Shown here: positions 26,767 to 46,451 of the stretch, one piece after another | How positions within the stretch are numbered: position 1 is the first letter of the stretch | Layout: each line of letters begins with the position of its first letter | From: an uncultured Rhodobiaceae bacterium | GTDB lineage: Archaea > Thermoplasmatota > Poseidoniia > Poseidoniales > Poseidoniaceae | Length of the DNA stretch: 64,000 nt | Reading direction: 5' to 3' | NCBI GenBank assembly: GCA_937911445.1 | Contig: CALDQY010000189.1 | Location: 185 to 64,184 of the forward strand | Notes under the pieces: generated by a model | Database searches by the model: none | Told to the model about the DNA's origin: nothing | Seen by the model: the letters and a program-made list of their open reading frames with translations, nothing else | Program-made: the position numbers and the translations under genes

Positions 26767-28055
26767 AGAGGGTTCTGTGGTGCTTCTTTTGGAGCACTAC
26801 TTGGCATCGATTCGAGATCCTCAAAGGTTAGTTGTCCGGTGTGAATTTCTTCAATTTCTTGAAGCCGCTCAGCCATTGGTTTTCGTACAATAAATTCGAT
26901 ACGACCTTTGCTTCGTGTCAAATCGTAGGAAAGTGGGTCAAGTGCTTCGATGACCTGTTGTTCGAACGATCGTTGTACTCTTCGTCCTCTCCAAATCGAA
27001 TACCCCCATTGATATGCAATCCCAACGATAGCCGCACCGTAGAGGATGGCAAGGAAGGTTGCAGCAAACAAGGCGGCATTTCCGCCGCGGGCTTCCTCAA
27101 GCAAATCTCGCCCAAGGAGAAATATCAGACCAACACCAACTAAAGGTTTGAGCAGCGACTCTACCCACTGGTCAATCGGTATGAGTCGACCTTTGGATGG
27201 GTCAACAAAGACTAGGTCTGTTTCAAACGCTGTTGATAGTACCCCGACCAGTGCCAACAAAGCGATATACAACAAGGAGGAGAGAATGATTTCAGTTCCA
27301 AAGTTATCCAACTTGAAGATCCAATGAACAATCAAATAGGCGAACAATCCCAAAAATACACCACGTGGTACTCTGTGAAAGTGCTCGATGTGCTGTGAAA
27401 ATTCAGTGTAATTTCGCTCTTGTGCAGGATTACCACGGTGGGCTTGAGGGATGTGGATGATTTGCCAATGCATCGTTCGCTCGACGAGGCTCATGATTCG
27501 AATCAAGATTCGTCGCCTGATAAGAACAAATTCAACCAAAAGAATCACGGGCAGACCAACCAGCATGACTGGAAGTGCAACGATGAATGCGAGTGGAAAA
27601 ATAATCAAAGCTGGAAGGATAAGGAAATGGGAAATCGATAATGGATTCAATATGTCAGCCTCAATCAACCGTTGTCGTGATGGAGTAATTCTCAAGCTTC
27701 GAGCAACATCGTTCAGTGAATGTCGATAACTTTCCAATTGTCTTCCAGAATCTATGATTTGTCGAACGTTGGTTCGGTACTCGGATTCTTCATGACTTCC
27801 ACCGATCCAATACTGCCACATAAAGCGGAGCGGAATCGCTGTCAAAACAGGTACAGATAGGATGCCTAGGGCCCAGACAAGTGATTGAAGATCAACCTCT
27901 GCTGCCATAGGCTCACTGGACCGTCCCAGTTTTCTCCTTCCTATCAATCCATTGTGAAAAACTCGAAGCGAACCCAATGTTCTAACACCTCTTCGATAAG
28001 CATCATCCATGCGAAGAGTAGCCGTAACCGACGGTATGGCGCAAGAGGCCGTCAA
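26763..28055 (-). CDS. hypothetical polytopic membrane protein
   Basis: 430-aa ORF with about 8 hydrophobic helices. True start probably internal (e.g. MAAEVDLQSL), since the ORF N-terminus overlaps the serA-like gene start. Confidence 0.5.
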   Translation of the reverse strand: MTASCAIPSVTATLRMDDAYRRGVRTLGSLRVFHNGLIGRRKLGRSSEPMAAEVDLQSLVWALGILSVPVLTAIPLRFMWQYWIGGSHEESEYRTNVRQIIDSGRQLESYRHSLNDVARSLRITPSRQRLIEADILNPLSISHFLILPALIIFPLAFIVALPVMLVGLPVILLVEFVLIRRRILIRIMSLVERTMHWQIIHIPQAHRGNPAQERNYTEFSQHIEHFHRVPRGVFLGLFAYLIVHWIFKLDNFGTEIILSSLLYIALLALVGVLSTAFETDLVFVDPSKGRLIPIDQWVESLLKPLVGVGLIFLLGRDLLEEARGGNAALFAATFLAILYGAAIVGIAYQWGYSIWRGRRVQRSFEQQVIEALDPLSYDLTRSKGRIEFIVRKPMAERLQEIEEIHTGQLTFEDLESMPSSAPKEAPQNPL

Positions 28056-28995
28056 GAAACTCGAAAGCGCTGGTTGCGAGGTTGTTCAGGATTTCATCGA
28101 ACACGCCCAACTGGTTGATGGGGCATTGGCTGATTTCGATGCAATCATCGTTCGCAGTGCAACCAAACTAACGAAAGAAATGTTGGAAGCAAGTCAACCT
28201 CGCTTGAAGGTGGTTGCTCGTGCAGGCGTTGGTGTCGATAACATCGATCTTGACGCAGCATCTCGTCTCGGCCTACCGGTCGTCAACGCACCTCGGGCGA
28301 GTACTCAGAGCGTTGTTGAACTCACCGTTGGCCATTTGCTGTCTTCGCTTCGCTTCATCCCTCGTGCCGATCGATCACTGCGTGATGGTGGGTGGGCGAA
28401 AAAAGAACTCAAAGGGACAGAGCTCTATGGAAAACGACTCGGCCTTGTTGGTTTCGGACGAATCGCACAAGGCGTTGCGAACGTCGCTCAAGCGTTTGGA
28501 ATGGAGGTTCATTCCTACGATCCCTATCTCCCACTTGCTATCGCTAGGAAGGCAGGTGTGACGATGCACAAAAACGTCGACAATCTCTTCAAAACATGTA
28601 CGCATATCTCCATTCACTGCAACTTGACTGAGGAAACACATCATCTTGTCAATCAAAAGCGCATCAGTATGATGCCCGGCGTCGATCCGTTCAATCTCAA
28701 ATGTGGCAATCATGTCGTTAACTGTGCACGAGGAGGCATCGTTGATGAAGATGCAGCTTTCGAAGCACTTGAATCTGGACAATTGTCGTCCTTGGCCCTT
28801 GACGTCTTCGAATACGAGCCAGTTGATCCCACATCCCCTCTTCTTCAACATCCGAATTTCCATGGTACGCCTCATATCGGTGCTGCTACCATCGAAGCAC
28901 AGCGTCGTGTAGGGCTTGATATCGTCGATGCCGTCCTCACTGTTTTGGATGGTGGCATGGCCGAAACCACTGTCAATCGAAGCAATCTTTCCTGA
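28009..28995 (+). CDS. serA: D-3-phosphoglycerate dehydrogenase / D-isomer-specific 2-hydroxyacid dehydrogenase
   Basis: NAD-binding 'GLVGFGRIAQ'. Catalytic 'NCARGGIVDE' and His near the C-terminus ('HIGAAT'). Confidence 0.75.
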   Translation: MRRVAVTDGMAQEAVKKLESAGCEVVQDFIEHAQLVDGALADFDAIIVRSATKLTKEMLEASQPRLKVVARAGVGVDNIDLDAASRLGLPVVNAPRASTQSVVELTVGHLLSSLRFIPRADRSLRDGGWAKKELKGTELYGKRLGLVGFGRIAQGVANVAQAFGMEVHSYDPYLPLAIARKAGVTMHKNVDNLFKTCTHISIHCNLTEETHHLVNQKRISMMPGVDPFNLKCGNHVVNCARGGIVDEDAAFEALESGQLSSLALDVFEYEPVDPTSPLLQHPNFHGTPHIGAATIEAQRRVGLDIVDAVLTVLDGGMAETTVNRSNLS

Positions 28996-29057
28996 CCATT
29001 TTCACTTTTCAGAAGGGGTTCGCACAACGCTTCCCTAGCGTTCGTCGTTCCAACACC

Positions 29058-29351
29058 ATGGGACGAACTGTACCAACCTGGCGAGGACGCGTTGAACAAG
29101 AGATCGAAATTCTCGTACCGTACCGGCGCGCATTATCCCATGAGGATCGCTGTCGTTTTGATGCGATGCTCCATGATGTTCGAATGCGTCGAGCAGCAGG
29201 TGGCATGCTTCCTGCGCACGAGGCGTGGAGGCCGATGCTTTTGTCGATGATTCTTGGTGCTCATGAACGAATTCAAGCGCTTGAACAACGTATTGCATCT
29301 CTTCAACAACATATTTTGTCTTTGGATGGAGACGGTCATGACCAGCACTAG
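29058..29351 (+). CDS. hypothetical small Arg-rich protein, translationally coupled to the PolB gene
   Basis: 97-aa ORF. Its stop (TAG 29349-51) lies 11-23 nt inside the PolB start (ATG 29326/29338). Could be a regulator or accessory subunit. Confidence 0.35.
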   Translation: MGRTVPTWRGRVEQEIEILVPYRRALSHEDRCRFDAMLHDVRMRRAAGGMLPAHEAWRPMLLSMILGAHERIQALEQRIASLQQHILSLDGDGHDQH

Positions 29352-31731
29352 TGGCTGGATTTTGGACGCCCATCTTTGCTCAGCACAACTCGAAATGCTG
29401 GTATGGATTGTGACTGAGGAGGGCTCTGTTGTTTCATTTCGTGAGCCTTGGCATCCTACACTGCATGTCGCCGGAAGTTCATCAGATCTCGATCATCTCG
29501 TCGAATGGTTGTCGCAGCCAGAACTCTGGATACGATACGGTCTGCAACGTTATGCCTTTGAGAGAAAACGACCCGAATTGGGTTCCTTCGATACGGAACG
29601 TATGCTCGCACTTACGCTCGAATCGTCCGCTACATTACGCGCACTCGCCGAACACATCGATGCGCGTGGTGAACATGTTCGATACAACCTCTATTCCGTA
29701 GATGTTCGAGCTGAACAGCAGTACCTCACTTCGAAGCGATTGACCATTGGTTCACCTGTGTGCCTCGAAAACAACCACCTTTCGCTCTTGGAAAGAGATG
29801 TTCAACGACGTGACTGGCGATGTTGTCGACTTGAGGTTGTTCTCGAGGAGATTGGTCAAGGAGAAACGCTGTGTCGCCAGCCAACACGTGTTTTCGTTAC
29901 ACCATGCGATACGTCTGGCACCGTCACAGGGCCACAAGTTGCTTTTTTTCTGCAGCAATCCTCATCTCTCCAACAATTGGAACAGTGGTTTCAAGCGTAT
30001 GATCCTGATCTTGTGCTGTCGCTGCGTGGCGATACCGAAGGGTTTCCACATCTGTTGCGCTACGTTGAAGCCAAACATACAGCGCTCTGTCTTGGACGAA
30101 ACCAAACCCCTCTGAGACAGATTGGTCAAACGAGGATTCTTTCGTCCTATGGGCAGGTGTTGCGAAGCAATCCTCAGTTCCCACTCGAAGGTCGTATTCA
30201 TATCGATCTTTCGTCAAGTTTCATGTTTCGGGAGGGGGGACTCGATGGACTGTACGAACTTGCGCGTGTTTCTGCAACGCGAATCAGTGATGCCTCAAGG
30301 AAATCTCCGGGTTCGGTGATCAGCGCGATACAATACCGAGTAGCGATGGAAGATGGTGTGCTTGTTCCGTGGAAAAAGACGCGTCCCGAGGACACGAAGT
30401 CTGCATGGGATTTGTTGCAATCCGACCGAGGAGGGCTCTACTTGGACAGCCGGCCTGGTGTCTATGCTAACGTCATCGAACTCGATTTTGCAAGTCTCTT
30501 TCCAAGCATCATCGCAACACGCAACATCTCTCCAGAGACATTGAATTGCAGTTGTTGTCAACCGACCAAGAACACCACGCCACTACCTCTCCACCCGGAT
30601 GAAGCCAAAAAGCGGTTTCAATTGCAACAGCAGCAATGGAAATCAGCAAGTCTTGCATTTCCTCAACAGTGCTCAAATGCGTTTCAGGTCCCTGAATTAA
30701 TGACGCATACATGTGGTCGCAGGCATGGTTTTCTCGGCCGAGTCGTTGCACCTCTCATCGAACGACGTCGTCACCTTAAGCAGCAAATTGTCGTTAAGGG
30801 CGATGCCGCCGATCGTCAGCAGAACGCTCTCAAATGGCTTCTTGTCACGTGTTTTGGTTACACGGGATATCGAAACGCTCGTTTTGGTCGTATTGAAGCA
30901 CATGAAGCCATATGTGCTTGGGCTCGTGAACTTCTCTTGCAGACCATCGAATGTGCCCAAGAACGTGGTTGGGAAGTGTTGCATGCCATTGTCGACTCCA
31001 TCTGGATCCGTGATCGAGAGGGTCGTTCTCTCGAAGAACAGCATCACTCTGCGATGGATCTTTCGAATCATGTGCATAAAATGACGGGCATTCCTCTCGA
31101 ATACGAAGCAACGTACCGCTGCATTGCCTTTCTTCCAAGTCGGATGCACAGCGGTGGTTCACTGACGAAGTATTGGGCATATGGCGAGAAGGGAATGAAG
31201 ATTCGAGGGCTTGAGTTACGGCAACATTCGACGTGTCCTTGGGTTGCTCAACTGCAAACACGCGCCTTAGAAATGCTGGCGAATGCCGATGATTTGGCAG
31301 ATGGCATTCCAAGCTATCGTGTACAATGCCAAATTCAACGGCTTCTCCTCGACGAAGTGCAGCGTCTTGAACACTACCAGATACGTGCAAAGGATTTGCT
31401 CGTTGCCCAACGAATCTCTCGAAGGCCCTCTGCGAATTCCTCACAAACCGTGGCCATGTTGGCCTATCAGCGCTCAGAGTCGCTAGGTTATCCTTTGGAA
31501 TTGGCCTCAAAGGTACGTTTTGTTGTGTGCACAAAAGATGCCATTAATCCGTTGCAACGTGTTGTTCTTGCACGGGAATGTGAACACCTGGATGGTCCAT
31601 TTCGGCGCATCGATGTTGATTACTACCGTCGACTTGCTGTGCGGGCAATATGGTCGGTTCTCGCTCCATTTGGTTGGTCGGAAGAGCAACTGCTTGAGCC
31701 GCCAGTCGCTCGGCTGGAACAATGGATGTAA
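29338..31731 (+). CDS. polB: family-B DNA polymerase, bacterial Pol II-like, with substituted exonuclease and motif B/C residues
   Basis: 'QWFQAYDPDL' aligns with E. coli Pol II 'AWFANYDPDV'. Motif A 'DSRPGVYANVIELDFASLFPSII' aligns with 'DSRPGLYDSVLVLDYKSLYPSII'. Motif C appears as 'HAIVDSIW' in place of 'YGDTDS'. Motif B appears as 'KWLLVTCFGYTG' in place of 'KIIMNAFYG'. Exo I/II acidic residues are not recoverable. About 797 aa from ATG 29338. Confidence 0.8.
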   Translation: MTSTSGWILDAHLCSAQLEMLVWIVTEEGSVVSFREPWHPTLHVAGSSSDLDHLVEWLSQPELWIRYGLQRYAFERKRPELGSFDTERMLALTLESSATLRALAEHIDARGEHVRYNLYSVDVRAEQQYLTSKRLTIGSPVCLENNHLSLLERDVQRRDWRCCRLEVVLEEIGQGETLCRQPTRVFVTPCDTSGTVTGPQVAFFLQQSSSLQQLEQWFQAYDPDLVLSLRGDTEGFPHLLRYVEAKHTALCLGRNQTPLRQIGQTRILSSYGQVLRSNPQFPLEGRIHIDLSSSFMFREGGLDGLYELARVSATRISDASRKSPGSVISAIQYRVAMEDGVLVPWKKTRPEDTKSAWDLLQSDRGGLYLDSRPGVYANVIELDFASLFPSIIATRNISPETLNCSCCQPTKNTTPLPLHPDEAKKRFQLQQQQWKSASLAFPQQCSNAFQVPELMTHTCGRRHGFLGRVVAPLIERRRHLKQQIVVKGDAADRQQNALKWLLVTCFGYTGYRNARFGRIEAHEAICAWARELLLQTIECAQERGWEVLHAIVDSIWIRDREGRSLEEQHHSAMDLSNHVHKMTGIPLEYEATYRCIAFLPSRMHSGGSLTKYWAYGEKGMKIRGLELRQHSTCPWVAQLQTRALEMLANADDLADGIPSYRVQCQIQRLLLDEVQRLEHYQIRAKDLLVAQRISRRPSANSSQTVAMLAYQRSESLGYPLELASKVRFVVCTKDAINPLQRVVLARECEHLDGPFRRIDVDYYRRLAVRAIWSVLAPFGWSEEQLLEPPVARLEQWM

Positions 31732-32401
31732 AGTGGCTCAATTGTTGTTGGTCTATTGGATGGCTCGATTGTTTCATGGTCACTTGGTAAACGCCTGTGG
31801 AGCCTGTGAGCCGAAGTGTTGTTTTCTCTCGGTCCCCCCATGTTCCTTGTAATCGATGGCGAACATAAGGCCGCATCGTATGCTTGAGTTGTTGATGCAA
31901 GGGAGAGGTCGTCTTTCCATCGAGAAGAACAATTGGACAGTTTCGACCTACTTCTTCAAGCGAAGCCATGCAATGGCGTAGAATCGAACGTGCTTCAAAT
32001 CGTTTGATTTGTTCATCAAGGAACATTGCGAGCATACCATCGACAACGATCATCGATGCCTGTGTTAATGCAACCTCATGCCGAATTCTTTGGATAAGTG
32101 CATGCAGTTGATGTAAGGTGAATCCTCGCCCAATGTACAATCGACGTAACCCGTCTTCGATAGGACAATCCAGTGAACGCATGGATGGAAAAAATCCGCT
32201 TGGATCAAATCGATGACCTCCATCAATCCAATGCACAGCATGCCCTCTCGAAAGAAGAATGCTCGTCCAATGTTGAGCGAGTACTCGCCCGTCTTTTCCA
32301 AAGTATCCTGGTCCCTCGAGCAGGGTGATGCCTGTCGAAGGGATACGCAGTTCACTACGTTGTCGTTCTACTGGATGCATTGTCTCACCAAGTATTGCCA
32401 A
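31544..32401 (-). CDS. RecA-fold protein with degenerate P-loop (ImuA/SulA-like)
   Basis: 'ITLLEGPGYFGKDGRVLAQHW...HAVHWIDGGHRFDP' matches the RecA-family P-loop/strand pattern, but with GKD instead of GK[ST]. Walker-B-like 'ASMIVVDGMLAMF'. The ORF's last ~60 codons overlap the PolB 3' end convergently. Confidence 0.55.
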   Translation of the reverse strand: MAILGETMHPVERQRSELRIPSTGITLLEGPGYFGKDGRVLAQHWTSILLSRGHAVHWIDGGHRFDPSGFFPSMRSLDCPIEDGLRRLYIGRGFTLHQLHALIQRIRHEVALTQASMIVVDGMLAMFLDEQIKRFEARSILRHCMASLEEVGRNCPIVLLDGKTTSPLHQQLKHTMRPYVRHRLQGTWGDREKTTLRLTGSTGVYQVTMKQSSHPIDQQQLSHFTSIVPAERLAAQAVALPTNQMEREPTILPAQQVDGSNQHRCAEMDHPGVHIPVQEQHVATD

Positions 32402-32453
32402 TCACTGAAACCAAACCTCAGTGTTTTTGTAGGGAGTAATGGAAAAGTGAAGG

Positions 32454-33602
32454 ATGAATTTCAAACACTGTCGACAAGTGTGTCGATGTGTGCGTGAAGA
32501 GCGAATCATCATCCATTGCGACCTCGATGCATTTTTCGCATCGGTCGAAATCCTTCATCATGGCTTTCCTGAGGATGAACCGTTAATCATTGGCTCGGAT
32601 CCGATGCAAGGACGTGGCCGAGGCATTGTATCGACGTGCAACTATGCTGCAAGGGAATACGGTGTTCGGTCTGCGATGCCAATTTCTGAAGCATGGCGCA
32701 GATGTCCCGGACACCCTTTTGGCCCTGCCCGCTTCATTAGGGGTACTCGATCATTGTATTCGATGGCTTCACGACGCGTTATGAAGATTCTGAGGCAAGA
32801 TTCAGACAAGTTTGAACAGGCGAGCATCGACGAAGCCTATCTCGATGTTACTGAGATTGTCAAGCACGATTGGGATGAAGCGATGGCCCTTGCACGAAGA
32901 CTGCAACGATCGATTCATGCGAAGGTAGGCTTAACAGCATCTTTCGGAATTGGGCCAACACGAATCATAGCGAAGATGTCCTCCGAAGTGAACAAACCAA
33001 ACGGTATTCATCGAGTTCTACCCGATGAGATTTCAGAGTTCTTCGAGGCTCGATCTGTGAGAGAAGTACCGGGCATTGGTCCGAAAACTGCCAATGTTCT
33101 CTCGGAGTGGGGTGTGACAACCATGGACGAGGCCGTTGAATTGGGTGAACTCGCTCTAGCCAGAATGACATCTCGTCGATTTGCTTCTTGGTTGTTGAGG
33201 GTGGTTGAGGGTTTAACTTCCAACGATGTTAGTCCTCTAAGATCCCGTCGCTCGATTGGCAAAGAGCGAACATTTTCCAGCGATCAAAGTGATCATGAGC
33301 ATGTGCTCGAACTTCTTGAACAATTGACACAGACTGTGCTAGAAAAGGCTCGAACTGAAGGAATTGCAGGCCGTCTTGCAGAAGTCAAAATCCGGTACAC
33401 TGGTTTCGAAACACATACGCACGGACGATCAATACCTGTTGCCATGGACGATACAGATGTGTTTCTGAGACAAGTCCGCAGACTGTTTGCAGAAAACGTC
33501 CACCAGGACGAAAAAATCCGCCTCATCGGTTTTCGACTAGGGCAACTCGAAGAATTGGACTCCCGTCAAACGACGCTGGATTTTGTCGATGAATCAGAGT
33601 AA
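32454..33602 (+). CDS. dinB: Y-family DNA polymerase IV (DinB/Dpo4)
   Basis: 'IIHCDLDAFFASVE' and 'SIDEAYLDVT' catalytic motifs are intact. 'GIGPKTA' helix-hairpin-helix. Real start may be GTG 32490 just upstream of 'RIIIHCD'. Confidence 0.85.
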   Translation: MNFKHCRQVCRCVREERIIIHCDLDAFFASVEILHHGFPEDEPLIIGSDPMQGRGRGIVSTCNYAAREYGVRSAMPISEAWRRCPGHPFGPARFIRGTRSLYSMASRRVMKILRQDSDKFEQASIDEAYLDVTEIVKHDWDEAMALARRLQRSIHAKVGLTASFGIGPTRIIAKMSSEVNKPNGIHRVLPDEISEFFEARSVREVPGIGPKTANVLSEWGVTTMDEAVELGELALARMTSRRFASWLLRVVEGLTSNDVSPLRSRRSIGKERTFSSDQSDHEHVLELLEQLTQTVLEKARTEGIAGRLAEVKIRYTGFETHTHGRSIPVAMDDTDVFLRQVRRLFAENVHQDEKIRLIGFRLGQLEELDSRQTTLDFVDESE

Positions 33603-36056
33603 TTTGTGCATCCGAGTGAGGGTATCATGGAATCCAGTGAGGTTGTCTGGAATCACGATGCCTTCAATCTCAGCATTCAGCGATAAGCCGTTTTCTTTCT
33701 TCGTTTTCCAAACCTCACTGTTGAAGGATTCAATGCCTGAAGTTTTGGAATTCAAATCCTCATCGACCGATGGTAGATTGGGGAAGGAATCAACATCAAC
33801 AGCGCTCGTTCCGTAGAGCGTCATCGATATGTGATGGCAAAAGAAGGGACAAACTGGGCTGAATGCAGCGAGGAAATCACGTAGAATGCTATGAATGGTC
33901 CAAGCAGCATGCTGATCTCCATCGTACAACCGAGATTTTGCCATTTCAAGCCAATGTGAAGGCAAAATCCCAGTTCCGAATGTCTTGAGTGCCTGAGTGG
34001 CAGTGTAAATATCGAGGTTTTCCCAAGATGTTCGAACGCTTGCCATCATGGTTGCGAACTCAGATTGAATCCAACGATCTTCAATAGGATACGGTGCAGA
34101 TGGCTCATCCTCTGGACAATCAAACTGGCTGGCAAATCGGGCGACGTTGAATATCTTCGTTAGTACACCGAAGTACTTCGATTCAATTTCTTCTGGATTG
34201 ATGTGAAAATCATCTCCAACTTGAGCTTCGCATGCCTTCCACAGACGAAAACACTCACTGCCAATTTTGTTCGCTTTGAGACTGACCGAACCATCAGGTC
34301 CTCGCACCTTCCATGAACCTGTTCGTCCTCCTGCACCACATTCGAGGACACTATCTGCATCAATTCCATTTCCGAGCGATTTGGACATCTTTCTGCCCCA
34401 CGGGTCCATGCCTAGACCATCGATCCATACATGCTTGAAACCAGGTTTCTCTAGCAACAGGGCAGATTTCAGAAGGGTGTAATACAACCACGTACGAACG
34501 ATTTCTTTTCCTTGAGGGCGTAAAGCCGTTGGGAACGCCTTTTCGAAAACCTCTGGTTGGTTGAGATACCCGCTGACAAACAGATTGGAGTTGGAGGAAT
34601 CCATCCACGTATCGAAGACTTTCTCTTCACCACGGATTTGTCCCATTTGTTCTTCAAGTTCGGAATACAATCCGATGTCTTCTCTTGTGTCTCGCTGCAG
34701 AACTCTCGACCCTTCAGGAGGTGCGTCCTTCCACGGCTGTACATAGGTTCCAGCTGGTGGAACGATGATGTGTTCCTCGTCTTCGGAGTACCAAATTGGA
34801 ATTTCAGTGTGGTACCATCGTCGTCGTGATATTGGCCAATCGATGCTGATGTTGTCCATCCAATCCAACAAGAATTGTCGGTTGCGCTGCGGGTGGAATT
34901 CGATCTGTTCAATCAAGTCGAGCATCTTGTCTTGCATGTGTGTTTGGCGAACGTACCATTCCTTCAGTAGGATGATTTCGACAGGATTCTTTCCTCGTTC
35001 TGAAACGGGAACTTCTTGCTGTCGCTCTTCAATGGCATCGATATTGCCCTCCATTTCCAACATCTCGATGGCTTTTGCACGGGCATCAAGGACGGATAAC
35101 CCTTCAAGTGGACCCGAGATTGAGGTCATGCATCCGTTCAAATCGATCGCTTGGAATGGTGCTAGGCCTAGTTCTCTGAAGACTGCGACGTCGTTTTGAT
35201 CACCGAACGAACAAACCATGAGAATTCCACTTCCAAACTCGGACTTGACCGATGGGTGTGTCTGTATTTCAACGGATTGTGCACGTCCGGATACTGGCAT
35301 TGGAAGAATGGCTTTCTTCCCAACAAGGTGTTGGTAACGCTGGTCATCTGGATGAACAACAACGACGCCACAAGCGCAAATCAATTCCGGCCGAGTTGTC
35401 GAGATAACAAGGTCCTCACCGTCTTCGGTCGTCCAACGAACATCAACCAATTTGGTCATTCGACCAATTCGCTCCACTTCAGCATCAGCAATGGTCGTTC
35501 CTTCGACTGGGTCGTAGATGTTGGGTCTCAAATCTTCGACGATGTCTCCTTTCTTGAACAGTTCAATGAAGATTGATTGGGTTACTGATCTGTAATCAGG
35601 AGCGTCGGTGAGATACTCTGCGGCAAAATCGCAAGATAGGCCAACACGAGCAGCAGTTTTTCGCATGGCTTGTGTGAACGTCTCGATCGTTTCACGACAT
35701 AAATTGAGAAACTCTTCTCGGCCGTATGTCTTCATTTTCCGCTTTGTGTTCTTTTCGACGGTGAATTCAATATTGATTCCGTTCCGATCCACACCCCAAG
35801 GGAAGTAGACTTCCTTACCAAGCAATCGCTGAGAACGTGCCAGAACATCGATCATCGAATATTGTGCAACAGCGCCAATGTGCCACGTTCCCGATGGGTA
35901 TGGAGGTGGTGTGTCAATCACAAAAATTGGTTTCCCACTCTGTGGATTGAAACCATATCGTTGTTGATAGGCATTTTCATCGGCGTAATGTTGTTCTTGT
36001 ATGCTCTTTTCGAGGTCGATTGACCATCGCTTTTCTGGAAGTCGAGGCGTTCCCAT
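33594..36056 (-). CDS. valS: valyl-tRNA synthetase
   Basis: 'PPPYPSGTWHIGAV' HIGH region. 'TTRPELICACGVVVVHPDDQRY' (ValRS 'TTRPET...VHPED'). 'KMSKSLGNGID'. Start set at Met 36056 (MGTPRLPEKRW). The upstream 64 codons are probably not translated. Confidence 0.8.
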   Translation of the reverse strand: MGTPRLPEKRWSIDLEKSIQEQHYADENAYQQRYGFNPQSGKPIFVIDTPPPYPSGTWHIGAVAQYSMIDVLARSQRLLGKEVYFPWGVDRNGINIEFTVEKNTKRKMKTYGREEFLNLCRETIETFTQAMRKTAARVGLSCDFAAEYLTDAPDYRSVTQSIFIELFKKGDIVEDLRPNIYDPVEGTTIADAEVERIGRMTKLVDVRWTTEDGEDLVISTTRPELICACGVVVVHPDDQRYQHLVGKKAILPMPVSGRAQSVEIQTHPSVKSEFGSGILMVCSFGDQNDVAVFRELGLAPFQAIDLNGCMTSISGPLEGLSVLDARAKAIEMLEMEGNIDAIEERQQEVPVSERGKNPVEIILLKEWYVRQTHMQDKMLDLIEQIEFHPQRNRQFLLDWMDNISIDWPISRRRWYHTEIPIWYSEDEEHIIVPPAGTYVQPWKDAPPEGSRVLQRDTREDIGLYSELEEQMGQIRGEEKVFDTWMDSSNSNLFVSGYLNQPEVFEKAFPTALRPQGKEIVRTWLYYTLLKSALLLEKPGFKHVWIDGLGMDPWGRKMSKSLGNGIDADSVLECGAGGRTGSWKVRGPDGSVSLKANKIGSECFRLWKACEAQVGDDFHINPEEIESKYFGVLTKIFNVARFASQFDCPEDEPSAPYPIEDRWIQSEFATMMASVRTSWENLDIYTATQALKTFGTGILPSHWLEMAKSRLYDGDQHAAWTIHSILRDFLAAFSPVCPFFCHHISMTLYGTSAVDVDSFPNLPSVDEDLNSKTSGIESFNSEVWKTKKENGLSLNAEIEGIVIPDNLTGFHDTLTRMHKLL

Positions 36057-36189
36057 GCTTAACACCGGCCCTGCCCCCTGTGAACGGGGGGGTCCGATTG
36101 ACCCTGTGTGCGTTTCTTTTTCAACGGTTCCCTCACAACGAGACAGCAATACTTTCAATGAAAGACCCGAGGGGCTACTGGGTAGCCGT

Positions 36190-39100
36190 ATGCCGGAAGA
36201 CGCCGAAGACACAACATCCTCCCATGGTGAGGAGGACGTTGGACGCATTCAGGCGATTGCTGACTACAGTCGAGAGCGTGTACGAGTAGCCTCGGTTGAC
36301 ATCTCTGCCCGAGTGCGTGACTTTGATGCAAAAAAGGCAGTTGATGCAGTTCTCGAAGCTCCGAAGAGGTTGAAACGGGAATGGCAAAAAACCGGAGCAA
36401 CAGGTGTTATCACACGTTTTCCGATTGCAACAGTGGCCTTGTTTTTGATGATCACATTGTATTTTGTCACAACGTCAGGATTCCTTGACGACACGCAGTT
36501 TGATGATGATCCGAACGAACCTGCACTCAATGTCAATGGTGACATGGAAGTATACCTCCCAGATGGGAGTGAAGTCAAGGAACTAATCGAAATGGTTGAA
36601 GCGGATTGGACGACCAACGTTATGGTCATTTACATAGAATCGGATAAAAACAACATAACTGACCAAAGGATTTTGCAAGAAATCAGTTATGTTGAAAAAA
36701 GCATCAATCCTTATGTCTCTGACAATGAAAGCGATGATGTCATTTACATTCTTTCAATTTCGACGGTACTGAAGGAAATCAATTCAAGTTTGCCGCGTGT
36801 ACGTGACGCTTTCATCACCGAGTTGGGTCGCCAATGCCCATCTTTCCAAGAGGTCTGTGAGAACTTCGCCGCTAGTGTCAACACGGCATTGTCGGCAGGT
36901 GATGACCAATTTGCTGGTGGTTACGAAATTCCTTCCCAGACAACCATCGATTTGATCATCGGTGAAATGTACGAAAACGATGGGTCTCCTACGCCAGGTC
37001 TGGATAAACTCGCACGGAATACCAATGCATGCAGCGGCCAACCGAACGATGAAGGTACTGATGACAACGGTTGTTTTGATGGCGAGGACTTGAAACTCGA
37101 TCGAGCCATTATGGCAGTTGCAGTTGTCGACTCTATCGAGGCCAAAGATATCATCGAGGCAACACAACAACGCCTTGACAACATCTCGACCGAACAGCGT
37201 CCATGTGAATTCGATCAAAACGGTAACCCAGCGAGTGCTGACCGTTGTACCTGGGACGATCTTGGCCTGAAAATGACTCTTACAGGGCCCGTTCCCATTA
37301 CGAATTCTGTGACCGAGTTTTCGTTCCGTTTGTTCTGGGAAATTTTCCCGCTAGCAGTTGTCCTTGTCGCTATTGGTCTCTTTGTCTTCCACTCAGATCT
37401 TCTGCAAGCAGGTATCTCTGGTATACGCCCAATTCAAGGAATCAAAGTCGTCATCATTGCCGGTCTTCCAACACTGTGTGCAGTCTTTTGGACATTGGGA
37501 ATTATCGGGGCATCGAATTATGAAGTGACGATGACGGTCATTATCGTGGGTCCAATTTTGCTTGCATTAGGTGTCTCGTATGGTTTGCACATCACCAACA
37601 GATACGCTGAAGAAGAAGGTAGCAGAACCGAAAAGATGCAAGCTTCGATGAAATCAACTGGTCGTGCTGTTTTCTTATCTGCTGTCACAACCGTCATTGG
37701 ATTTATTTCACTGATTTTCACGCCTATGGCGCCAATCAAAACCGTTGGTATTGCGCTTTCAGGTGGAATTGTCATCGTCTACATCCTGACGATGTTTATG
37801 GTTCCAAATCTTACCCTGATTCTTGATTTACGTAAACCGAAACATCCTCCACTGAAAGTGTTTGATGCTGCTGTTGACGTACCGGTCAAACGCAACCGTA
37901 GTCTTATTGCGTTCTTCCTAATCCTGGTATTCGTTTCAGCAACGCTTGGCCAGTCCAATGTTGAAGAAAACATCGACCTGCTGGGTATGGCTCCTGAAGG
38001 TGAGCAACCGGTCATCAAGATGAAACAATACAGTCGTGAGTTCAATGCAGGCCAAATCGGTATGGTTCTTGTCCACGCAAACGTATCTGGCGATGTCACC
38101 GACAACGACCCAACCAATGATGATCCCGCTCAAAATCTGAAAATCATTGACGGCCTAGAGAGGAATCTCAATACTGTTGAAAATGCATCTGCTGTTTCTG
38201 TCGTGTTCCTCATGAAAGCAACTGGACTTGCCCCTACTCTCTCTGGTCAACCACTCCTTGCACAAATTCAAGAGATTCCTGGCTATGATATTCTACCAGA
38301 GGATGTTCGCAACACCTTCGAAGTCTTGCTTGATCAAGAGGTAACACAAGGTGCAACATTTTGGGATTTGCTGACCACTCCTGAAGAATTTGGCTTGCCG
38401 GGTTCAACGCAGAGTCAAATTTTCTTGCTCGATGTATTCTACTCTTCTCTGACAAAAGAAATGCGTGAAATTTTCATCAATTCGGATTATGATCGAACGC
38501 TGATTTACATCGACATGCCATTTATTCCTGTTGCTGATACCGCAGTGGCTGTTGATCAAATCAACGAATACTCTGAGGGATTCCAAGGTACGCATCAAGA
38601 ACGTGCTGAAAAACTGACAGGAGTCGCTGCAACCGCTATCGAAGTCAACAAATTGATTGTTGATTCGCAATGGACCTCACTCGGATTCGCCATCGTGCTT
38701 ACGCTGATTGTACTCGCCGTCGTGTTCAGAGACATTCGGTATTCACTCTTGACGACATCACCTGTGATTGCTACCGTTGCACTCCAATGGCTCGTTATGT
38801 GGCAAATGGATGTGCCATTATCCCTCGTAACCGTCATGATCGGATCGATTCTTGTTGGCGTCGGGGTCGACTTTTCGATTCACATCGCCAATCGTATACG
38901 TGAACTTGGCGGTGGGATTGAGGCGATTCGTTCTGCAGCGGTTGGAACAGGAATGTCGCTGTTTGAGGCTGCAGTCGTCACATCGCTTGGTATGTTTACT
39001 GCCTATCAAATTCCAATTCCTGAAATCAAACCTTTCGTGACGGTTATCCTCATTTTGCTCTGGGTTGCAGCAGCAAGTGCTTTGCTCCTCCTACCCGCTA

Positions 39101-45755: not shown

Positions 45756-46451
45756 CCATTGCTTTCAGTTGCATTGGGCCAGTACCTCCTAGAGGCGTAT
45801 CATGAACAGCGGTTCAAGGTTCGTTGGGTCGAACCAAGGCCTCAAACCGTACGGCTTGAAATCGAAGCGTCCCCTGACCTACCTCATCCAAAGCCTGTTG
45901 AATCTTTGCCTTGGTCAATCACCCAACAGATGAAAACCACAGATTCGTGGTTAATCCTCGACCGACACTCACAAAATGAATTGAACTTTGAAGGCGAACG
46001 TGTTGTGTTGATTCCTGTTGAATCGATGGACCGCTTCCTTTCTGGGTGTTTGCCATATGTTTCTCAACAAGATGTTCAGTGGTTCGATGCAGATTCATGC
46101 AAACTCGATTCATACGAGTATCTCTTGCGAGCAACCATACAATCGATATCGAGCATGTTTCTCAAAAGTGAACAACCTGTCTACATTATCGACGGGTCGA
46201 GCTGGGCTGCATACATCGAAAATTACATCTGCGAACGTGGATGGGGCAACGCACACGTCACGAGCTACGATACATCCGACTTTAGTTTGGAACTAACAAT
46301 ACCCATGCAAAGTCAACTCCCATTCACGATTGGATTGTTGTGCGGAATGTGGGAACGTGCTCATGGCAGAGCATACCGATTGTCGTTACGAATAGAAAGT
46401 GATACTTTTGTCCTTCAAATCCAATCTTTGCTTGACTATGAAAATCAGTGA
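45432..46451 (+). CDS. hypothetical protein (start uncertain, may begin at an internal Met ~45636 or ~45930)
   Basis: 339-aa ORF. The downstream two-thirds has no competing ORF. Confidence 0.45.
   Translation: MRFIEPIVTLDIVPKRGQLIHPLFGEVVLWRQHEFHTWWNQFEAIIDHPLSRTFINGVVDSLEFKNAMPRFGGLFRKKKFKKESDRIGCQLGWGTFQFENQNVVQSAHPLLSVALGQYLLEAYHEQRFKVRWVEPRPQTVRLEIEASPDLPHPKPVESLPWSITQQMKTTDSWLILDRHSQNELNFEGERVVLIPVESMDRFLSGCLPYVSQQDVQWFDADSCKLDSYEYLLRATIQSISSMFLKSEQPVYIIDGSSWAAYIENYICERGWGNAHVTSYDTSDFSLELTIPMQSQLPFTIGLLCGMWERAHGRAYRLSLRIESDTFVLQIQSLLDYENQ

Follow-up and report, generated by a model that had tools for sequence, protein, structure and literature searches.

The 64-kb window analysed here (a single stretch of 64,000 nt) contains a gene for a RecA-fold protein with a degenerate P-loop, convergent to a family-B DNA polymerase gene and overlapping its 3′ end by 188 nt. 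The locus raises the questions of what this protein does and whether so long an overlap has a function. We conclude that the ORF very probably encodes iRadA, an inactive RadA/Rad51 paralogue and accessory subunit of the archaeal PolB2 translesion complex, with the overlap being passive. The assignment rests on a RadA core fold lacking the N-terminal domain, substituted ATPase residues, homology to published iRadAs and constant PolB2 and PPB2 neighbours. The system is already known, being that of iRadA in the published PolB2 mutasome. The features of the locus are as follows.

29001–29008, plus strand: TTCACTTT element, 57 nt ahead of the PPB2 start
29058–29351, plus strand: PPB2 (arCOG07300 family), a small subunit, helical by family; 97 aa, N-terminus MGRTVPTWR
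29338–31731, plus strand: PolB2, family-B translesion “extender” polymerase; 797 aa, likely start ATG 29338
31544–32401, minus strand: longest ORF of the iRadA gene; 285 aa from TTG 32401
31544–32380, minus strand: iRadA by our assignment, an inactivated RadA paralogue; 278 aa from the likely start ATG 32380
32381–32453, no strand assigned: divergent iRadA/dinB control region, 73 nt
32454–33602, plus strand: dinB, Y-family DNA polymerase IV; 382 aa, catalytic motifs intact

Identity of the RecA-fold gene

A total of 74 homologues of the ORF were recovered, the most distant at 44% identity, and substitutions within the core follow a coding-type periodicity (codon position 3 > 1 > 2, 2928:1074:648). 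The gene is thus genuine and no chance ORF, and marine Poseidoniales archaea conserve it. The original prediction placed the ORF at 31544–32401 with an overlap of about 188 nt with the polymerase gene, and these coordinates hold. The true start is most likely ATG 32380 rather than TTG 32401, since a conserved GGTGA Shine-Dalgarno-like block precedes the ATG and most database orthologues are 278 aa long; orthologues of 224–245 aa also exist.

The AlphaFold model of the protein has a core at residues 17–210 with pLDDT mostly between 70 and 90. When this model was compared with the PDB using Foldseek, the best 50 matches were all RadA, Rad51, DMC1 or Rad51 paralogues, with target-normalised TM-scores up to 0.69, the best being a RadA/Rad51 ATPase core (E = 2.7e-9, probability 1.00), and a profile of the family also matched P. 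furiosus RadA in the PDB (E = 8e-4). The RecA fold proposed from the sequence is therefore that of the RadA/Rad51 ATPase core. The N-terminal domain of RadA is missing: the first core strand begins at residue 25 of 285, some 16 disordered residues lie ahead of the core, and the best target coverage was obtained with RadA constructs consisting of the ATPase domain only.

In the published PolB2-iRadA-PPB2 “mutasome”, iRadA (arCOG07763, arCOG04294 and arCOG08101) is a RadA paralogue that has become inactive (Makarova et al. 2014, PMC4104785; Timinskas et al. 2025, PMC11791011). We judged membership against nine published iRadAs, to which the family profile aligned over 162 columns with an hhalign probability of 99.9 (E = 2.6e-34), and not against a single truncated sequence from S. 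islandicus, for which the hhalign comparison was not significant, as is expected of a family that evolves fast. BLASTP against the Poseidoniales iRadA EHR76800 gave 38% identity (E = 2e-33). Pfam and NCBIfam scans of the ORF returned only sub-threshold matches, to Rad51 (12.1 bits for the Pfam model, with a cutoff of 22 bits), KaiC and ArlH, and a PADLOC scan returned no match.

Profile comparison thus leads to the RadA lineage and the iRadA family, not to an unrelated one. The protein had been likened to adaptors such as ImuA and SulA-like proteins; the functional analogy to ImuA or to the RecA of Pol V is apt, but membership is not, as hhalign places the protein in iRadA. We rejected an identity as ImuA because the partner polymerase belongs to family B, the neighbouring Y-family gene is an intact dinB, and Pfam and NCBIfam gave no ImuA match. 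An identity as a RadA/Rad51 recombinase was also rejected, given the Rad51 score below cutoff, the substitution of Walker A and of the catalytic Glu, and the missing N-terminal domain. The motifs that bear on activity and binding are listed below.

32291–32314, minus strand: degenerate Walker A, GPGYFGKD; aa 30–37 of the 285-aa ORF
32201–32230, minus strand: WIDGGHRFDP, aligned by HMMER to WIDTENTFRPE of P. furiosus RadA
32036–32053, minus strand: Walker B-like strand MIVVDG; strand 117–121 in the model
31727–31750, minus strand: PIP-box-like QQQLSHFT; aa 218–225, abutting the PolB2 stop codon at 31729–31731
31544–31726, minus strand: C-terminal tail specific to the clade; some 60 aa with the stop counted, lying antisense to the final 62 codons of PolB2

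In the predicted structure GPGYFGKD falls between strand 25–29 and helix 34–51, at the place of a Walker A motif, in agreement with the proposal of a P-loop that keeps its Lys and has Asp in place of Thr or Ser. Across 23 aligned orthologues G30, G32 and G35 are invariant and K36 nearly so, while position 37 is Asp or Glu in every one, giving GKD or GKE and not GK[ST]. The Glu of the IDTE motif of RadA and Rad51 is catalytic, and the alignment of RadA WIDTE with WIDGG indicates its replacement by Gly. The Walker B Asp is kept, D121 being invariant among the aligned orthologues. Conservation of the Walker B Asp and of the glycines and Lys in the P-loop is strict, beyond what would be expected of a fully dead site, so that iRadA may still bind nucleotide or phosphate. 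It is most likely a non-catalytic polymerase accessory with a degenerate ATPase site.

The QQQLSHFT motif marks the end of the conserved protein, with L221 nearly invariant and T225 invariant. The form QxxLxxFT, with Thr instead of the second aromatic residue, is present in most loci and degenerate in several. Published iRadAs terminate in QxxLxx[FW] motifs that are reported to bind PCNA, although such a motif occurs in only a subset of the family and is not strictly defining.

The PolB2 module and its neighbours

The module is complete: PPB2, PolB2 and iRadA lie side by side in the window, as they do in all loci that extend far enough to cover the three genes. The order PGDH-PPB2-PolB2> <iRadA-dinB> <ValRS, with iRadA convergent to PolB2 and divergent from the adjoining dinB, is kept in 34 of 34 loci and in a deeper lineage (locus L036). 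It agrees with the published neighbourhood table of operon group 3b, whose 95 operons contain IMS in 46 cases, 2-Hacid_dh_C in 45 and tRNA-synt_1 in 42, and Poseidoniales operons of identical gene order and neighbours are already part of group 3b in that dataset (PMC11791011). Groups 3a and 3b may differ in strand orientation. As iRadA lies on the strand opposite PolB2, with its own promoter region in common with dinB, it would not be co-transcribed with its partners, a point that counts against the mutasome reading.

The likely PolB2 start codon overlaps the PPB2 stop by 14 nt. The polymerase matches Pfam DNA_pol_B (1.7e-26), with no exonuclease-domain match in the Pfam scan, and is 30% identical to S. 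islandicus Dpo2 (E = 6e-35). Its DxD motif reads IVD (HAIVDS, 30982–31005) and aligns with IID of Dpo2 (HSIIDS), the first Asp being replaced; its DR (SDRGG, 30421–30435) aligns with the DK of Dpo2 (ADKGG), and the segment VLVPWKK...SAWDLLQSDRGG with the DK-bearing segment of Dpo2. With an altered DxD, a D(K/R) motif and an apparently decayed exonuclease domain, the sequence fits PolB2. PPB2 shares 54% identity with EHR76802, a published PPB2 (E = 2e-32), and carries the N-terminal MGRT motif described in PMC11791011. No model matched it in a local Pfam scan; precomputed annotation assigns the orthologue in L036 to PF26485/DUF8156.

The complex would consist of PolB2, iRadA and a PPB2 trimer, an architecture taken from published AlphaFold models and Sulfolobus experiments, with binding to PolB2, PPB2 and PCNA transferred from in silico work on relatives. 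Published multimer models of the Poseidoniales complex score 0.83–0.87. From such models, iRadA would dock on a PolB2 beta-alpha loop that mimics the RadA oligomerisation motif, and the MGRT arm of one PPB2 protomer would insert between iRadA and PolB2. By analogy, the C-terminal QxxLxxFT may tether the assembly to PCNA. Its activity would be to extend primer termini left opposite lesions, with the adjacent DinB a plausible inserter in the step before.

The spacer between iRadA and dinB is 73 nt in most loci and 70 nt in a few. It contains a Shine-Dalgarno-like GGTGAG ahead of the iRadA ATG, an inverted repeat CACTGA-N9-TCAGTG at 32403–32423 and, in a conserved block at 32444–32451 on the minus strand, a copy of TTCACTTT that abuts the dinB ATG. 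The copy upstream of PPB2 is invariant in every locus that reaches the region and stands at about −60 in L036; it may act as promoter or operator of the PPB2-polB2 operon. The window holds just three copies, of which the third, at 46165, lies within an ORF on its antisense strand and was taken to be a chance occurrence. The spacer and the PPB2 upstream region have a 10-mer in common, as do about 1% of random segment pairs.

These elements allow a more ambitious reading, which we consider unlikely. The locus would be a co-regulated two-polymerase island in which DinB inserts and PolB2-iRadA-PPB2 extends, under a common TTCACTTT(TC) element. The unusually well preserved GxGxxGK[DE] P-loop and Walker B Asp of this iRadA clade would then form a non-hydrolysing nucleotide switch, like ATP in the RecA of Pol V Mut, and the obligatory 3′ overlap would help to set the iRadA:PolB2 stoichiometry.

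The 3′ overlap and other readings of the locus

The 188 nt at 31544–31731 correspond to about 62.7 codons. The conserved iRadA protein ends at aa ~225–232, leaving ~54 extra residues, and residues 211–285 are predicted to be disordered (pLDDT <50). Other clades have a shorter tail or none. All 34 loci have a convergent overlap of at least 26 nt, with 62 nt in the deeper lineage; among relatives the length is 26, 38, 41, 62, 71, 116, 170 or 188 nt, and the longest form is still present in lineages whose iRadA identity is as low as about 67%.

Both the universal overlap and the persistence of its 188-nt form would suit a functional overlap, in which either the tail is functional in itself or the expression of iRadA and PolB2 is coupled through antisense RNA or transcriptional interference. 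The way in which the region evolves makes this distinctly improbable. The tail differs greatly in length from locus to locus, and its stop comes and goes even among near relatives: in L009 (278 aa) and L010 (224 aa) a single PolB2 Val/Ile codon switches between CAA and TAA in the iRadA frame. Each iRadA codon straddles two PolB2 codons, so that antisense stops arise at N[TT/CT/TC]|A. Substitutions in the overlap track the PolB2 codon phase only (position 3:1:2 = 814:300:95), and at a core identity of 74% the tail retains 41%. Of simulated synonymous recodings of PolB2, 50% left the antisense frame open over 61 codons or more. The antisense coupling raised in the original prediction thus finds no support in sequence evolution, though every locus of the clade has an overlap of 26 nt or more.

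On this evidence the overlap appears to be a passive product of gene packing and the tail an unselected read-through. The functional iRadA would end at the PolB2 stop codon, and in this lineage the antisense frame would run without a stop for 54 more codons, giving a disordered, fast-drifting tail dictated by the PolB2 sequence. The suggestion of a shorter true C-terminus is correct for the conserved protein and incorrect for the gene, whose actual stop in this lineage is at 31544.

It is very unlikely that the RadA-like protein serves the adjacent DinB, instead of or besides PolB2, in a pairing like that of ImuA with ImuB or within Pol V. Such a pairing would fit the position of dinB, divergent across a fixed spacer of ~73 nt in every locus with a conserved element abutting its start, the enrichment of IMS genes in group 3b neighbourhoods, and the precedent of RecA as a Pol V subunit in bacteria (PMC11791011). 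The DinB found here is, however, a full, catalytically intact Pol IV equivalog, unlike ImuB: it scores 276 bits against NCBIfam PRK02406 (cutoff 256), matches Pfam IMS, IMS_C and IMS_HHH, and has intact DLD and SIDEAYLD motifs. DnaE2 and UmuD are absent, and in archaea and bacteria alike iRadA is found together with PolB2 and PPB2, mostly with no Y-family gene nearby (IMS in 56 of 1823 neighbourhoods). The high scores of the published Poseidoniales PolB2-iRadA-PPB2 models also favour PolB2 as the partner.

An assembly or sequencing artefact that extended the ORF by a frameshift or lost stop codon, to which the shorter orthologues might point, has practically no chance of being correct, and the frameshift once suspected is excluded, because the identical 278-aa ORF and 188-nt overlap recur in 10 independent assemblies, including L001–L009, which come from different studies, and in database clusters of more than 200 members, with no indels in the alignment of the region.

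Relation to known systems

The protein resembles published iRadAs in having a RadA ATPase core without the N-terminal domain, substituted ATPase residues, an RGFTxHQ signature, a putative C-terminal QxxLxx-aromatic motif, fast evolution and a gene found with those of PolB2 and PPB2. It differs in that the Poseidoniaceae clade retains a near-canonical GxxxxGK followed by an acidic residue, together with the Walker B Asp, in that the gene in the window runs towards polB2 and overlaps it at the 3′ end, and in its lineage-specific disordered tail after the PIP-like motif. Archaeal RadA, RadB and the eukaryotic Rad51 paralogues share the ATPase-core fold and are the best structural matches, but identity is about 15%, the Pfam Rad51 score is sub-cutoff, and iRadA lacks the N-terminal HhH domain and has Asp for the Walker A Thr and Gly for the catalytic Glu.

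Published work has already likened iRadA in function to ImuA and to the RecA of Pol V (PMC11791011). In E. coli Pol V Mut (UmuD′2C-RecA-ATP) and in ImuA-ImuB-DnaE2, as probably here, a RecA-family protein is a stoichiometric accessory of an error-prone polymerase and not a recombinase, and the system is linked to DNA damage. In contrast to those systems, the polymerase is of family B here and of family Y or C there, and the small subunit is PPB2 rather than the UmuD′ of Pol V Mut. iRadA has no sequence match to ImuA models and belongs to the archaeal RadA lineage, not to RecA, and the neighbouring Y-family polymerase, unlike ImuB, is catalytically intact.

Since stops in the antisense frame depend on the codons of the partner gene, long convergent overlaps can arise and fluctuate neutrally, and this locus provides a worked example and a caution for the annotation of overlaps. 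The current understanding of the PolB2 mutasome is unchanged by the finding. It confirms that the abundant surface-ocean Marine Group II archaea have a complete PolB2 translesion module beside a Y-family polymerase, a combination relevant to DNA-damage tolerance and the generation of mutations in UV-exposed plankton.

Identity of the RecA-like gene

The original prediction placed a RecA-fold gene opposite the 3' end of a family-B polymerase gene, and an ORF is present there. The features discussed here are:

28009–28995, plus strand (that of PPB2 and PolB2), PGDH
29001–29008, plus strand, TTCACTTT copy upstream of PPB2 (−57)
29058–29351, plus strand, PPB2, the small subunit, starting MGRTVPTWR
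29338–31731, plus strand, PolB2, the polymerase
31544–32401, minus strand, iRadA ORF, 285 aa from TTG
32291–32314, minus strand, GPGYFGKD, aa 30–37 of the 285-aa ORF
32444–32451, minus strand, TTCACTTT copy upstream of iRadA, abutting the dinB ATG
32454–33602, divergent from iRadA, dinB
33594–36248, minus strand, convergent to dinB, ValRS

The iRadA ORF is a genuine gene. Among about 5.8 billion proteins searched, 74 are homologues with a lowest identity of 44%, all unnamed or "hypothetical" and derived from marine metagenomes and Thermoplasmatota, and a profile run against 1.84 billion cluster representatives gave 621 relatives at E≤1e-3, typically of 200–290 aa. Core substitutions in the close clade have coding periodicity, with codon positions 3 > 1 > 2 at 2928:1074:648. 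The start is more likely ATG 32380 (278 aa) than the TTG, because a conserved CAATACTTGGTGAG block containing an SD-like GGTGA stands before this ATG, the TTG falls within that block itself, and 278 aa is the length of most database orthologues.

A predicted operon that joins PolB2 to a small protein, arCOG07300, and to inactivated, fast-evolving paralogues of RadA was described by Makarova et al. 2014 (PMC4104785). The names PPB2 and iRadA for these partners come from Timinskas et al. 2025 (PMC11791011), whose model is a PolB2:iRadA:PPB2(3) heteropentamer with the conserved MGRT N-terminus of PPB2 inserted between iRadA and PolB2. The gene set of the window is exactly that described in this literature, and the RecA-like gene is the iRadA of the PolB2 mutasome. 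It is 38% identical to the published iRadA EHR76800 (E=2e-33), and, compared with an alignment built from nine published iRadAs, its family profile scores probability 99.9 (E=2.6e-34), a match on which an ImuA or SulA identity is rejected. The idea of a non-catalytic RecA-like adaptor was right in spirit, the family being iRadA. Profile searches had been suggested as a check; the Pfam scan of the ORF gave Rad51 and KaiC matches, both sub-threshold, and nothing else, and it was orthologue profiles that matched, not only the published iRadAs but also P. furiosus RadA in the PDB (E=8e-4, 23 orthologues).

The partners agree with this assignment. PPB2 is 54% identical to the published Poseidoniales PPB2 EHR76802 (E=2e-32), and PolB2 is 30% identical (E=6e-35) to Dpo2 of S. 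islandicus, an enzyme characterised by experiment. PolB2 HAIVDS aligns to Dpo2 HSIIDS, with Ile in place of the first Asp of DxD, and SDRGG to ADKGG, the D(K/R) motif; Pfam gave no match to an exonuclease domain in PolB2. PolB2 probably starts at ATG 29338, before PPB2 has ended, and the two share 14 nt up to and including the PPB2 stop (29338–29351), which suggests translational coupling. The listed mechanical start, TTG 29254, probably lies too far 5'.

Fold and ATPase site

The AlphaFold2 model of iRadA has a confident core at residues of about 17–210, with pLDDT below 50 at residues 1–16 and 211–285. The top Foldseek matches in the PDB are only RadA, Rad51, DMC1 and Rad51 paralogues (E=2.7e-9, probability 1.00), and since the best coverage is by RadA constructs of the ATPase domain only, iRadA corresponds to the RadA core alone and lacks the N-terminal domain. 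In the model GPGYFGKD lies between strand 25–29 and helix 34–51, the Walker A position. The degenerate site seen originally is confirmed in the orthologues: the Gly pattern and Lys are kept, and all of them have Asp or Glu in place of the Ser/Thr. The Walker B Asp is also kept (MIVVD, D121). In a HMMER alignment RadA WIDTENTFRPE pairs with iRadA WIDGGHRFDPS, so that the IDTE-motif Glu, which is catalytic in RadA/Rad51, becomes Gly. Judged by these alignments, the site is more damaged than was first recognised, as the catalytic Glu is lost, and is conserved beyond the need of a fully dead site. The conserved P-loop may still bind nucleotide.

The convergent overlap and the iRadA tail

PolB2 ends at 31731 and overlaps the iRadA ORF tail to tail by 188 nt, as predicted. 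A sequencing frameshift, one origin first proposed, is rejected because ten independent assemblies have the same overlap. We recovered 34 genomic loci, every one from Poseidoniales/Poseidoniaceae (Marine Group II) MAGs, and the overlap is universal among loci while its length varies: 26 nt (224–225-aa proteins), 38, 41, 71 (245 aa), 116, 170 and 188 nt (278 aa) in Poseidoniaceae, and 62 nt in a deeper lineage (P0077; L035–L037). Orthologue lengths, another suggested check, are mostly 278 aa in the databases, with the shorter forms existing too.

The conserved iRadA protein ends at Q218-x-x-L221-x-x-F224-T225, and as the F224/T225 codons sit over the PolB2 stop codon (31729–31731), all sequence within the overlap is beyond the conserved part. 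Position 1 lies opposite position 1 and PolB2 position 3 opposite iRadA position 2; each iRadA codon spans two PolB2 codons. Antisense stops occur only where a PolB2 codon N(TT/CT/TC) is followed by A. A single PolB2 residue, Val versus Ile, separates L009 (278 aa) from its close relative L010 (224 aa), and on the opposite strand the change reads CAA to TAA. Overlap substitutions in the 278-aa clade follow PolB2 periodicity (positions 3:1:2 at 814:300:95), the least variable position being iRadA's own third; the PolB2 C-terminus is 74–98% identical, and where the iRadA core is 74% identical its tail is down to 41%. When synonymous codons of the window's PolB2 C-terminus were resampled by local codon usage, 50% of the trials kept the antisense frame open over 61 codons or more. 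Given this PolB2-phase drift, the stop toggling and the 50% expectation, the 188-nt overlap needs no special explanation. The overlap is real and, from substitution patterns, evolutionarily passive; the tail is most plausibly a disordered extension that arises by read-through and is tolerated. Convergent transcription is unavoidable in this arrangement and might have regulatory effects.

Neighbourhood and proposed role

In 34/34 loci PGDH, PPB2 and PolB2 share one strand, iRadA faces PolB2 tail to tail, dinB points away from iRadA, and ValRS in turn converges on dinB; the deeper lineage, its PPB2 annotated PF26485/DUF8156, has the same arrangement. In the neighbourhood table of PMC11791011, operon group 3b, which holds Poseidoniales examples, lists IMS (46/95), 2-Hacid_dh_C (45/95) and tRNA-synt_1 (42/95). 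PGDH, dinB and ValRS are exactly these typical neighbours, so the locus type is already in the literature; the PolB2 mutasome is a known system, its Poseidoniales form and neighbours included, so that little in the window locus is new. Far-clade identities (iRadA 44–51%, PolB2 62%, PPB2 about 74%, DinB 80%, ValRS 82%) indicate that of the genes in the block iRadA evolves fastest, by a wide margin, in agreement with the high rates in PMC4104785. Longest-ORF calls for ValRS (minus) and an MMPL-family transporter (plus) overlap head to head by 248 nt (36001–36248), probably because the N-termini are called too long and not because the genes truly overlap.

The 8-mer TTCACTTT has three copies in the 64 kb. 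Those about 57–71 nt 5' of the PPB2 and iRadA start codons share one orientation and lie within blocks invariant across all loci (same positions, L001–L034), and the PPB2-proximal copy is found in the deeper lineage at about −60 (L036 7911). The two regions in the window have the 10-mer TTCACTTTTC in common; about 1% of random segment pairs share a 10-mer. TTCACTTT may act in both regions as a promoter or operator; at dinB it could instead be part of the translation-initiation (ribosome-binding) region. The iRadA/dinB start-to-start spacer (32381–32453) is 73 nt in nearly all of L001–L034 and 70 in a few, its length kept though its middle part diverges. An inverted repeat in the iRadA 5' region, CACTGA-N9-TCAGTG (32403–32423), is conserved in nearer Poseidoniaceae loci and not in the far clade, and could be a 5'-UTR hairpin or operator.

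C-terminal clamp-binding motifs are reported in many iRadAs (PMC11791011), and published iRadAs of other archaea terminate in motifs (such as GQLTLEVF, GQRTLEAF and NQTTLEEFL) comparable to QQQLSHFT of the window iRadA. The window motif has no second aromatic residue, and some loci have it in degenerate form, so a PCNA tether here is uncertain. The almost invariant PolB2 C-terminus, [VT]RL[DE]QWM* (31705–31731), resembles the archaeal PolB PIP box minus the leading Gln. Both proteins may thus carry weak clamp-binding motifs, a rare combination according to the 2025 paper (PMC11791011). The DinB C-terminus (33560–33602) closes with SRQTTLDFVDESE, a QxxLxF motif that is PIP-like or clamp-binding-like.

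Experimental support for a translesion mechanism covers two steps, in Sulfolobus only: Dpo2/PolB2 is exonuclease-free and extends mismatched or lesion-opposed termini (PMC8764526), and it acts sequentially with Y-family Dpo4 in abasic-site bypass (PMC8721586). For the window locus we infer that DinB would insert opposite the lesion and the PolB2–iRadA–PPB2 complex would then extend, with iRadA as a non-catalytic scaffold on PolB2 and its QQQLSHFT possibly serving as the tether to PCNA.
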